Source of the DNA: Marsupella aquatica
Lineage: Eukaryota; Plantae; Marchantiophyta
Assembly: GCA_973895155.1 (NCBI GenBank)
Contig: OZ316893.1
Coordinates: 9,239,839-9,303,838 of the forward strand
Length of the DNA stretch: 64,000 bases
Reading direction: 5' to 3'
The notes below the pieces were generated by a model, which was not told where the DNA came from, did not search any database, and saw only the letters and a program-made list of their open reading frames with translations. Positions 46,442 to 51,501 of this stretch are shown here, piece by piece (position 1 is the stretch's first letter; each line of letters opens with the position of its first letter). Both the position numbers and the translations under genes were made by a program.

Positions 46442-49400
46442 TCATTCTTCCAGATCCATGCCTTGTACAAACTCAAACTCCTCCTCGCTGGACAAGTCCT
46501 CAATTGACGATTCTTCCGTCCCCATAGTACTACAAAAACGCGTGTTACTGTCATTGCCATATATTGCAGAGTAGGAAAGACCAAAGATCCTCACCTTTAC
46601 TTTAAATTCCTTTTCATGGCATACTTGAAACCCAAAGGTGATTCGCCTTCACTGCGTAAATGAATCAAAAAACTCCACAGGAACCCAAAGAGAGAACGAG
46701 GACGACAATAGGTGTTCATCGGGGTTTACCTCAAGCATCGACAGCTGAAACATAAGATGCGCTTAAGTTTTTTGTTGTAGAAAAAGTAATTGAAAGACCA
46801 TCTGCGAGAATTTTGTCGAAGATTTACCCCAAGAATTAGGGTACATATGCGGTATCACGGAATATTTTAGGCCCTGCATCTTGACTGACTCCACCAAACA
46901 AATGATTCTAAGCAGTCAAGACTACAAGCTCCGTACAGACTATCAGAGTTAGTAAGACCAAAATGCGAAAGAAAACATACATGCTTCCACGGTCAGCAAA
47001 TGGATCTCCTTCAAAGTCGGGAACACAGCTGTAAACATCACAATCACCGAGCTCCATCACCTGCGATTTTTCGACCCATTAATCAAAATTCTCGAGAATA
47101 ATTAGGACGACATCATAAGTATTTTGAAACTCAAAATTATTTAATAATTCATATAGGTCAGTTCATTGAGCTTACTTCGTCAATTGCTGTCCAGATGCTG
47201 TCCATAAAAGGAGTCTCTTCTCCGGCCTGTGCTTCCCAGATCTGTGCCTCAAAAGTAATAGAAACAAGAATTTATAGATCTGTAACTAAGAGATGAACAT
47301 GAATGCTGAATCCAGGGAGCTCACGCATCAGATGTCCTTACGATCAAAATCTCTGGCTATCCAGAGATTCCGCAGAAACAACGATATTCAGCAGTCAACG
47401 CGATTAACGTATTCAAATACTCCAAATCAACTCTGTTAAGGCCTCTTCTACCTTAGTAGCTTCAAGCATGAATTGCTCTATCTTCTGCTTTGAAGCACAG
47501 GGTCCCTGTTCTTTAGAGAAATGATGAGCCCGCAACATGCTGTTACCCAATGACAAATTACAGAGCAGAACAAGAGAATCGGGTCAGACTACGATGGTAC
47601 TCAAACACTGCTATGAAACGACATGCCCTGCACATTTCCCTCGCTGGACGCTGTCAATAACTACCTCTGGGTTCTGAGGTACATTATTTCTACCATGGAT
47701 ATTTGAGTAACATCCACATTGGCCAGAAAAGTTGTCTCAAGGCTAATACAGTATGTTAAACTGCAAACATGGCAACACTGGGAACTCCACCTCCAAAAGT
47801 TCAGAGAACGACTCGGAAGAGTATACCAACATCAATAGCGACAAAGAGGGTTAAACAAACTACTGTCCTGCAGGATTTTCTAGCGGTTGACAAGATACAC
47901 AACTAATCTCCAAGGCATTGAATATACTATCGTGACTTCCTCCCCTGCTGCCAATGACCTTCACAGAAAAATTCGACTCTACTGTTCAAAGTAATAAAGT
48001 TCAAATACCTAGTTGCAAACTTGATAAACTATCAACAAGTTCTATAAATTAATTCACCAGTACTTTCCTCTACCATGCCGACCCTGTCCCTTGCCCCTTT
48101 GGAAACCTTGAAAACTTTAAAATACTCATTGGTTCATTCAAGTCAGTGCTAATGCCAGACATATTGAACTACTACCGACTCTTGTAAGATCATTCTCCAT
48201 TCCTTGCACTTCGGGAATCTTACTGTGACACCGCCTCTCTAAAAGACCCCGGGCACTTCAAAATATACACCTTACTCCCATCCACACGCAGTGCTAATGT
48301 GCGGACGATTGTCACTGTCAACCCTCCGACGCACTTTCTCAGTTAATCTCTCTGCGCACACTTCGTTATCCTGAAAAATAGGAAATGGAGAGATTTGAAC
48401 TCTCAGCCCCGCTAGGAGCAACGGTTTTAGGCCGCCTGTCAACCCTTGACAACACTTCCTATTCCCCTCGCTAAAACTTCGGGTTGCCGAGCGACTCCTG
48501 AGAGCCGACAAGGCATTACCCGCTTCTCTCAAGACATTGTGGCGAGATTTATAATCTCAGCTCCCACTGGAGCAACATGTGGACGCAGCTAACCAATTGT
48601 GGCCGCTTACGCCCTAGTTTCATACGTCCATCAAGTGTGTGCAATATGCTATACAACGTAGCACTGCGAAACCTACACGAGCCAGAACTGACAATAGAGT
48701 TTAGAGCCACATGCAATCAAAACCAAAAACCACCCGATGCCTACAGCGAAATCAAATAAATGCGTACCTGAAGTCGTAATCCGGATACATGTGATTTAAG
48801 GTGAGAATGAGGTAGATCAGCGTCTTACGACTGCACGTGTACAAAAACGTATATGAGAATCGCGGTTCTAATGCTTTTCAACATTTACCTGTCTGAAAGT
48901 TTCACAAAATCAACTCCGCAGCACTGTGCTGCATACAAGTGGATAATTTGCAGTCAGAGCATCCAGAACTGACATCCAGAAGCGAATATCGCAGCTTACC
49001 AAAAAATCGAAATTCATCTTCTAAACTTTTCTTCTGAATCATAAGAGAAGATATACCTGGCCGAACTAGAAAGAGGTCCAACTGGAGATGTTGACAAATT
49101 TGGAAGAAAGCAAAGCGAGTCGAGAACCTGTAATTACGGCCATATCAGAGTTTAATAATTTAAGGGATCGAAACATATCTACCACATTGATAGTGCTAAC
49201 AGATGGTATCGCCCCGCGACAACTAAGATGACGGACATAGTAACGAAGAAGCTTTGTTACCGACTTAAATCCAGACCATATCAAGGGCAATGCCAGATTA
49301 TAATCATCCGGTGAATCAAGTCCCAAGAAAGGCTCACCTCTTGCTCTAAACTCCGTGATAGCTTCTTGTCCATACCTGCAAGCTTGCCTGAATCAATAAA

Positions 49401-50300
49401 CCAACCAAAGAAAGTCGTAAGAAAGCGCGAGACAAAAACACTCCCTCCAAAGGTCGAGGCAGAACGTTAGAAGCCTCGAGGGATCAGGTGGAATAGAGCA
49501 CACGGTTCACTCCCCCTGAAGCTACCGTTGATATGAAAAACAAACAGTGACCAGAAGCGTTTCAGTGACCACAAGAGGTTAATTGAGGAATCCTTGTCCA
49601 GAAACTGCAACGTACAACCTGTGCACCAAGCTCTGAAGACTGAGAAACCGTAAACCTGCTGAAAAACTGCTACGTGGTCCACGACAAAGGTCCAAACCAG
49701 TGTAACACTATAAGATCAAGAAAAAGACATAGGCATGACTGCTGCAGAGGAAGGAGGACTATACCACAAGACTCAATCATTAGCTGCCTCAGAAGTCATT
49801 AAACGCAAAGGAGTAGAAGACCATTTAGACCATTACATTACTCTGTAACGGAGTAGTTATCGATCTACACGAACGCAAGACCTAGAAGTTGAGACTCACA
49901 AGAATAGGCCTCCAGAGCTCCTTGTATGAGGCAGTCGCCGAGGTTGACATTGGACAGGAAAGCGTTTATTCTGCGCGAGAAAAGCGACAGAAACCGAATT
50001 ACAAGACAACGTCCTCATGATATAAGGTAGACATGATGAAAGACTCTTTCACAAGAACTCTCAAACAATTGGCACATACGCACATGTTGAATAAATGCAG
50101 CAGCATGTTCAATTTCCAAATAATTGAACATTGGGGACCGACTTGGACAGAATTGGGACCAACAACCTCCAAACTTGCATTAATAACAGAATCGAAGTAC
50201 CAAAGCCATGCAGGACAACGAGGAACGAAAGGAAACGAAAGGACAAACAAATGTAGGAAGAAGCCTACCTTGCAAGCGGGGTGTATTCGAGGTACTTCAT
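46442..50300 (-). CDS. MAF1: Repressor of RNA polymerase III transcription MAF1
   Basis: Missed by the ORF track because the exons are small: 50300-50269 ([11 protein letters not shown]), 49970-49900 ([23 protein letters not shown]), 49387-49338 ([17 protein letters not shown]), 49127-49057, 48830-48768 ([22 protein letters not shown]), 47539-47452, 47241-47176, 47060-46981 (DCDVYS), 46801-46730 ([17 protein letters not shown]), 46529-46442 (acidic tail [24 protein letters not shown]). All introns GT-AG and in phase; PDYDFS and [11 protein letters not shown] are Maf1 signature motifs. Confidence 0.96.
48276..48370 (-). other. Candidate poison (PTC-containing) cassette exon in MAF1 intron 5
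   Basis: Acceptor ttcctatttttcag|G and donor GGA|gtaagg. 95 nt (not 3n); in-frame TAA at 48345-48343 when joined to the PDYDFS exon. Confidence 0.6.
48381..48459 (-). ncRNA. Intronic tRNA-like element (class II, long variable arm), probably a tRNA mimic rather than a decoding tRNA
   Basis: GGAAGTG TT GTCAA-GGG-TTGAC A GGCGG-CCTAAAA-CCGTT GCTCC-TAGC-GGGGC T GAGAG-TTCAAAT-CTCTC CATTTCC. The 7-bp acceptor, D arm, 5-bp anticodon stem with 7-nt loop, 5-bp variable arm and canonical T arm all pair. C at position 33 and the tiny D loop are non-canonical. Confidence 0.85.
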
Positions 50301-50948
50301 AGCACTTACGGTTCATGTATCCTTCGTGAAAACCGAGAAAACTGGACGTTCCCGTCCCAGAAACCGACGGAACCCTCGCTCGGACCACCGCACTCCACCA
50401 AAGCATCCAAATCGAACTCGATCGGTCTCAAACCAAATGATCACCCTCGACTCGCGGATTCAAAATCAGAGCGCCATCATCCTTCCAAACACAATCGAGA
50501 GCCAAACGCCAGAGGCAAAACGCTCGAGGCAAAACCACGCTCCTCGTCAGCAACTGCGAGAACAGCGAATCGAGACGGAGGGCAAAGACGAAACGCAATT
50601 GAACTAAACGTAAGTTCGCACGTTTCGACGTCTTCACTTCTTTCTTCTTTCTGCTTCTGCATCTGCATCTGCTTACCGCGGTACCAGACCACGGCTGCCG
50701 ACCACGTGAAAGAGGAGGACGAAGAAGGGCAAAAGGCTAGCGCGGGCCAAAAGGAAGACGGGCCGCAGAGGCAGAGCACAGCAAAGAAAGACCCACTACA
50801 ACTGCAAAGGAATCGTGGGGTGAGGGTAGGGACCTACAGTAATAATAATAGGGCCGTGGCCAGGAATGGTTCGAGCTCACCCGGTCACTGATGGCATGAG
50901 CGGACACCGTCGAGAGATGGATACGGTCAAATACAAAGCCAGTAACTG

Positions 50949-51203
50949 GCTTAGGTCAGGGTGGCCAGGGGAGTATGGTAGCCTAGAACTGGGAGGCCTA
51001 CCCAGGTTTGTGAACCCCTATCCTGAATTTTTGTTGGATGGTCATGTAAGATTCTAAGGCATTAGAGCTTAGGTCAGGGTGGCCAGGGGAGTATGGTAGC
51101 CTAGAACTGGGAGGCCTACCCAGGTTTGTGAACCCCTAGCCTGAATTTTTGTTGGGTAGTCTTTTCTGTTGGGTAGTCATGTAAGATTCTAAGGCATTAG
51201 AGC
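50949..51203. repeat. Tandem duplication, 118-bp period, upstream of MAF1
   Basis: gcttaggtcagggtggccagggg...gtaagattctaaggcattaga at 50949 and 51067; the second copy carries a further short internal duplication. Confidence 0.93.
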
Positions 51204-51501
51204 GTGTCAAATTCCTCAAAGTGTTACTGCTTGATTTATTTTTTCATTTCCACATTTATGGGGTATGTATTGTGGTAACAGGTATTGATTTTGTCCTGGC
51301 CATTAAAGCACTTTATGTCCTAAGATGTAACTGAGCTACATTATTGCTTTGACACTCCCTATTACTCCATGGGTGAAGCCATAGTACCCCTGTGCAAGCC
51401 TGGCTTGGGGACTCTCATCCTGGACCAACATAAATTTGTAAAAATGCACATGGTTGTCACAGTTGCAATTAAAAAATGACTAAGGAAAAAGTGAACAAGA
51501 A

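Follow-up and report, generated by a model that had tools for sequence, protein, structure and literature searches.

The window (the whole 64,000-nt stretch of DNA that was analysed) carries on its minus strand the gene for MAF1, which represses Pol III and thereby acts as a brake on tRNA synthesis. The gene was laid out as follows:

46442..50300, minus strand: MAF1 coding region, 226 aa, ten exons with GT-AG boundaries and an open frame
50300-50269, 49970-49900, 49387-49338, 49127-49057 and 48830-48768, minus strand: MAF1 exons 1-5
47539-47452, 47241-47176, 47060-46981, 46801-46730 and 46529-46442, minus strand: MAF1 exons 6-10
47540..48767, minus strand: intron 5, 1228 nt, directly after the exon encoding PDYDF; it hosts the element described below in all relatives

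The Pfam Maf1 family (PF09174) was matched by three of the six MAF1 exons tested. The protein is 96% identical to that of Calypogeia fissa (P0057/P0196), 77% to that of Riccia and 70% to that of Ceratodon, and because of the match to C. fissa we regard it as a liverwort-type MAF1. Intron 5 is the longest intron of the gene, as an earlier note on this DNA had stated. Green-alga-type MAF1 fragments (P0007-P0115, on long contigs) run uninterrupted across the PDYDF junction, 14 of 16 by a strict pattern and the other two by eye, which suggests that intron 5 is absent from these lineages, the lineage being assigned from similarity only.

Two further observations were made at the 5' side of the gene. 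The 5' half of MAF1 (48815-50900, from the upstream region to part of exon 5) was present at several-fold baseline depth, in diverged contigs, in all four runs, and the loose ends of these contigs near 50828 carry telomere-type repeats. This multicopy segment looks like a transposon-captured gene fragment with many copies, which end before intron 5 and the element. Upstream of MAF1, an imperfect direct repeat of ~120 nt was seen by eye at 50950-51205, within which Tandem Repeats Finder reported a 17-nt unit only.

Within intron 5 we delineated these features:

48480..48522, minus strand: bulged hairpin, the 'MAF1 motif', defined by its fold (z -2.18), covariation and a published consensus
48498..48500, minus strand: CAG of the hairpin loop, by analogy a candidate acceptor; unpaired in the ensemble and polymorphic
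48460..48467, minus strand: purine-rich leader that extends the acceptor stem, in bryophyte rows only
48381..48459, minus strand: tRNA-like class II cloverleaf, CPIR-1, defined by ARAGORN, Rfam, fold and alignment
48459-48453/48387-48381, minus strand: acceptor stem of the cloverleaf
48450-48438, minus strand: D arm
48436-48420, minus strand: anticodon arm
48419-48406, minus strand: variable arm
48404-48388, minus strand: T arm
48371..48380, minus strand: U-rich trailer plus CAG, in this lineage only, with the dinucleotide unchanged in runs X2 and X4
48276..48370, minus strand: 95-nt candidate poison exon, a stretch of sequence that is not conserved

The complete class II cloverleaf that the earlier note had described, sense to MAF1, was recovered in the centroid fold (7/4-6/5/5/5), together with the C33, the D loop of 3-5 nt and the TTCAAAT T loop. 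It is the sole tRNA-like call of ARAGORN in the 64 kb and scores 38.2 bits against the Rfam tRNA model RF00005 (gathering score 29; E 4.2e-6). Folded alone it has a z of -2.08, with 7 of 200 shuffles equally stable; together with the 8-bp extension of its acceptor stem, which was likewise reported before and is present in the window fold, z is -3.95 and none of 200 shuffles was as stable. The view that this cloverleaf is unlikely to decode also holds, with a C33 in the window and an anticodon loop that is changeable among relatives.

The element has a second half, absent from the earlier note. This hairpin (48522-48480) consists of a 5-bp stem, a 2-nt bulge (48517-48516), a 4-bp stem and a variable top, and its end is separated by 20 nt in the window from G1 of the cloverleaf. 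A stop-free frame of 94 codons (48272-48556, minus strand) spans the hairpin, the cloverleaf and the 95-nt stretch; a protein match was sought for it and none was found, and the frame is probably due to chance.

Both halves have been published. Sack et al. 2025 reported the 'MAF1 motif' as a hairpin in MAF1 introns of 105 Magnoliophyta species, followed by the tRNA-like structure that Akkuratov et al. 2014 had named CPIR-1 (PMC12218528; Gene 548:81; RNAcentral URS0000C5172F). In the available text of Sack et al., an AG is present in all sequences of the motif, a RefSeq alternative 3' splice site is given in Hevea only, and an NMD-associated site near the motif was not found in Arabidopsis; the motif is assigned no function there and is not classed as cis-regulatory (PMC12218528). 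By eye, the hairpin and cloverleaf of the window match the consensus in the supplement of that paper. Judged by sequence, the window element is thus the liverwort copy of a land-plant MAF1 intron-5 element, consisting of CPIR-1 and the MAF1 motif. Within the literature searched (with most subscription journals, theses and bioRxiv supplements outside), only PMC12218528 treats the element, and no functional or feedback study of it was found.

The published and the window elements share the location in a MAF1 intron sense to the gene, the two-part anatomy and near-identical stems. The MAF1 motif was published for Magnoliophyta; our analysis extends it to a liverwort, to two types of moss and to one unplaced lineage. 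The CPIR-1 region was reportedly seen in moss too by Akkuratov et al. in 2014. Compared with angiosperm CPIR-1, the acceptor stem of the window is extended; compared with the angiosperm MAF1 motif, the window has no long lower stem, and GG stands in place of the AG of the invariant position, the polymorphic CAG lying 6 nt further on. Since the AG feature was defined on angiosperms only, we take this GG as a lineage difference and not as a sign of another element. Poplar-type loci, including L001, carry a second, decayed copy in tandem, ~125 nt upstream of where the intact hairpin lies; it comprises a hairpin together with the cloverleaf's 5' half. Tandem copies are also present in the published alignment (PMC12218528).

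Two candidate splice sites were considered and weakened. The loop CAG at 48498 as acceptor of the window is lost in run X4 (G at 48498 to T) and would form an in-frame exon of 222 nt with the donor of the 95-nt exon. A protein search with the loop-CAG frame left none of 80 candidates with an E of 10 or below, which is weak evidence, and the loop-CAG tail in the window frame was in none of 198 proteins examined, few of them from liverworts. The conserved GGUA(A/C)UG as an alternative 5' splice site was weakened because GC replaces GU in four rows of the available PMC12218528 supplement.

To follow the element across species, 241 million metagenome records were searched with a 26-nt pattern from the T arm and the 3' acceptor strand. 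This yielded 26 exact matches, every one of them in MAF1 intron 5 with the donor of the PDYDF exon upstream. By the similarity of their MAF1 exons, these loci are of angiosperm types, of Sphagnum type (L013, L015, L021 and L023), of another moss type (L008), and an unplaced pair (L003/L018) with about 50-65% to moss MAF1 exons. In this pair (element at L003:975-1150 and L018:1636-1812) the anticodon loop has 6 nt and the D stem 3 bp, and the hairpin shows a compensatory change. If the lineage of L003/L018 were a streptophyte alga, the element would predate land plants.

The window and 10 of the 26 loci, chosen as distinct, were aligned (11 rows). Pairing was 100% for the anticodon stem, which has two compensatory pairs, 95.5% for the D stem, 90.9% for the variable arm and 96.1% for the acceptor stem. 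For the hairpin, 99% of cells are paired, three of nine pairs show compensatory change and 0 of 500 shuffles reached the observed pairing, although such shuffle tests are inflated because the aligned rows are related. Invariance of the T arm is circular here, since the T arm and 3' acceptor strand were the search pattern; it is also visible in the published alignment, as far as this was available (PMC12218528). The D-loop GG is present in the window and in the nine distinct loci tabulated. The anticodon loop varies from 6 to 9 nt with changing sequence, position 8 is U, G or A, and ARAGORN run on 10 loci gave four different outcomes for six of them and none for the other four.

Allelic variation and copy number were examined as well. 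Of 37 differences between close alleles in the intron, none fell in the cloverleaf (2.4 expected, P 0.085) and one in the 151-nt element (4.6 expected, P 0.048). In run X1, which may stem from the window's own source, a single contig spanned all of intron 5, at baseline depth throughout (80% likeness), and single-copy status rests on this contig depth. In all four runs the introns were intact and contained no splice joints. The conservation and covariation that the earlier note had asked to see are therefore present, with covarying cloverleaf stems in the same intron from liverwort to angiosperms, and the many dispersed copies by which it would have recognised a SINE head did not turn up, given the single-copy depth and the 26/26 matches in one intron. 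On these comparisons the element is a selected RNA fold, and neither a SINE nor a decoding tRNA, because it occupies one orthologous intron, its stems covary and its anticodon loop changes freely. Features of a functional tRNA, namely a fixed 7-nt anticodon loop with U33, a conserved anticodon and U8, are missing. Typical of tRNA-Sec are a long D stem, a short D loop and a long variable arm; an origin from tRNA-Sec was considered, and the 7/5 fold and the variable anticodon argue against it.

Clues to the use of the intron came from 198 proteins, collected by two protein searches and one cluster look-up, where one search contributed 120 of 306 matches. In one Sphagnum-type cluster, four of five members (P0032, P0189, P0190 and P0191; 15 contigs) end 7 residues after PDYDF. 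This tail is the exact translation of L013/L023 when the exon-5 donor is joined to the hairpin CAG, with a TGA next (0 of 20000 shuffles). The upstream exons of these proteins directly adjoin in the protein but are separated by 0.55-1.3 kb in the locus, which is why spliced RNA is their likely source. The fifth member, P0192, ends as retention of intron 5 predicts. From these tails we infer that the acceptor with evidence of use is the AG inside the upstream hairpin, in Sphagnum-type relatives. In such hairpin-AG forms the cloverleaf does not cover the pyrimidine tract but falls on the exon side, downstream of the acceptor, as is also the case in P5SM. The place of the AG in the hairpin differs: +12 in the Sphagnum type, +18 in angiosperms, +24 in the window and +31 in L003/L018, with none in L008. 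Angiosperms retain a hairpin CAG with a bulged A, and gene models of Ipomoea and cotton, which are predictions or untied leads, are compatible with use of this AG. Specifically, cotton P0126 (97 aa) stops one residue past PDYDF and fits three supplement rows with a stop behind the hairpin AG, rows that are themselves not tied to cotton. A donor in the D loop, suggested by Ipomoea models P0068/P0193 that may be pure predictions, was rejected, as many rows lack GU after GG.

In summary of the comparisons, the element is conserved and covarying, has lost constraint on its anticodon, and retains the D-loop GG, the T loop and the acceptor stem. Because the elbow and acceptor stem are fixed while the anticodon and the exact splice site drift, we favour, at an even chance, a cis sensor: a tRNA mimic that, once bound by a free factor reading the elbow, would shift intron 5 toward unproductive outcomes. 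The ligand would read the elbow and acceptor stem of the mimic, the best candidates being nuclear RNase P/PRORP or tRNase Z, and a class II synthetase second. At low Pol III output the factor would be free to bind the mimic; the bound mimic would favour use of the hairpin AG or intron retention, followed by decay and less MAF1. Abundant pre-tRNA would titrate the factor away and MAF1 would rise, closing a negative loop. Since MAF1 is a repressor, homeostasis needs the free ligand to lower MAF1, a sign opposite to that in P5SM. According to the text available for PMC11740979, PRORP reads the G19-C56 elbow pair, and tRNA-processing enzymes read the elbow and the acceptor stem. Caution against naming PRORP alone is warranted because moss with a knockout of nuclear PRORP is viable with mostly normal tRNA levels, as described in the available part of PMC4201334. 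Against a cis sensor, the AG has no fixed place outside angiosperms, and chance alone will often put a YAG into 45 nt; splicing noise could account for the isoforms, with the structure next to them working in some other way.

A broader form of the cis-sensor reading, which we hold with slightly less than even confidence, is that CPIR-1 and the hairpin form a land-plant-wide pre-tRNA decoy through which the tRNA-processing machinery sets the MAF1 level, as the tRNA counterpart of P5SM. Free enzyme would divert MAF1 pre-mRNA to decay, and an excess of pre-tRNA would spare it. The unproductive acceptor would have moved by lineage while the fold stayed fixed, lying in the hairpin stem in Sphagnum and angiosperms and, in leafy liverworts, possibly behind the acceptor stem. 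P5SM is a 5S rRNA mimic in plant TFIIIA, and binding of L5 raises TFIIIA, according to the available text of PMC3378873. Both cases would involve a mimic of a Pol III product in the pre-mRNA of a Pol III regulator, tied to a stop-carrying splice form. The two differ in that P5SM forms a highly conserved cassette exon and has an established ligand, L5, which raises an activator upon binding; in the MAF1 element, acceptor positions differ by lineage, a shared donor is lacking and exon limits are not conserved.

The main rival would be direct cleavage, in which RNase P and tRNase Z cut the mimic in the nascent transcript in the manner of MALAT1/mascRNA and destroy the MAF1 pre-mRNA, with the odd isoforms as by-products. 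A stable small RNA would perhaps be released, and such cleavage could coexist with a cis sensor. We judge it unlikely as the main explanation, at roughly one chance in four. The constant features, elbow and acceptor stem, are those that processing enzymes read, splice-site positions wander, and a structure lies just 5' of the putative cut site at a fixed spacing of 58-71 nt. Bryophyte rows, by contrast, pair -1 with 73 and extend the stem, which in terms of enzymology hinders clean cleavage. The discriminator is moreover U or C, and a CCA in register is absent from the rows tabulated. A plant precedent for a released tRNA-like RNA is GUT15 of Arabidopsis, where an intronic tRNA-like sequence inhibits splicing of its own intron and is released as a stable RNA, going by the available text of PMC6152437. 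GUT15 resembles the MAF1 element as an intronic tRNA-like structure in a Pol II transcript; unlike it, the host is a lncRNA, a CCA motif is present, and no upstream hairpin is described in the available part of that source (PMC6152437). The mascRNA module of MALAT1/MEN-beta likewise places a tRNA-like fold behind another structure in a Pol II transcript, with cleavage there by RNase P, but it serves 3' end formation of a vertebrate lncRNA and does not lie in an intron of a coding gene.

A third reading returns to the acceptor that the earlier note had placed at the centre, and holds that the liverwort lineage, without an AG at the angiosperm position, uses the CAG at 48371, hidden by the extended stem, to open a frameshifting exon of 95 nt. 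The sequence facts are as had been noted: a CUGAG with its A at -33, a CAG at 48373-48371, 95 nt to GA/GTAAGG and an in-frame TAA after 9 codons. The polypyrimidine tract before this CAG is predicted to be paired (unpaired probability 0.03-0.27), in agreement with the claimed occlusion. With 11 of 12 pyrimidines it is the strongest tract of intron 5, though partly forced because the 3' acceptor strand is pyrimidine-rich; 23 such sites occur on both strands of the 64 kb. Neither splice dinucleotide differs in X2 or X4, in contrast to the variable loop AG, and in X4, where two indels remove the in-exon TAA (frame read by hand), 95 nt would still shift the frame. Against this, a YAG at that offset is present in 0 of 26 orthologous loci, and occlusion of the 48371 CAG as the conserved switch is not supported: the first YAG ends at +3 in one locus and at +26 to +118 in the others, and mosses that share the purine leader and stem extension have TGG or CGC at the position of the window's CAG. 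For the 8-bp extension itself, 57% of cells are paired, with pairing in effect confined to the three bryophyte rows. Seven of the 37 allelic differences fall in the 95-nt stretch (2.9 expected, P 0.02), which thus varies faster than the intron mean, and a protein tail from it was found in none of the 198 proteins examined, among which liverworts were few. The 48371 CAG may be a lineage-specific site, not part of the conserved core, and we consider its use as the operative acceptor improbable. What stands of the proposed tRNA-mimic splice switch is a conserved, covarying, single-copy and non-decoding mimic sense to the MAF1 pre-mRNA, and of the proposed poison isoform that stop-carrying isoforms probably arise from this intron in at least one relative, not via the 48371 CAG.

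The element might also act as DNA, its intragenic A and B boxes recruiting TFIIIC or Pol III and interfering with Pol II on MAF1. The B-box-type T loop is invariant, a T5 run follows the element in the window, a TATA-like run lies at -21 to -26 in angiosperm rows, and a precedent is found in POLR3E, a gene of the Pol III system with a conserved tRNA-related element, a MIR, in an intron (PMC5358760, as available). We regard this as very improbable. Covariation, for which DNA boxes have no need, is seen in the anticodon, variable and hairpin stems, and the A box is degenerate, with position 8 being U, G or A and position 9 always U. TATA is absent from the window and from Sphagnum-type rows, and the TATA-like run of angiosperms is one strand of the lower stem of the hairpin. 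Of the nine other rows tabulated, eight have their first T5 at a distance of 73-203 nt, and the 68 nt available for the ninth contain none. The POLR3E MIR, moreover, is antisense, Pol III-transcribed and acts by transcriptional interference according to the available text of PMC5358760, whereas the MAF1 element is sense. Finally, a neutral tRNA pseudogene or SINE head that sits in the intron by chance would explain the Rfam tRNA score, but is refuted by the orthologous position from liverwort to angiosperms and the compensatory changes, with a single match in the window at 3 mismatches and baseline depth in run X1, and its probability is negligible.

What is new here is that the hairpin is traced to liverworts and mosses, that the elbow stays fixed whereas the anticodon is free of constraint, and that a stop-carrying isoform with a hairpin acceptor is deduced from proteins in a moss. 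With this, an orphan motif in print since 2014 becomes a specific way to test how plants adjust MAF1 to tRNA output. If the cis-sensor reading is true, it would provide a feedback loop on tRNA production as the partner of P5SM, and a new splicing switch that synthetic designs could use.
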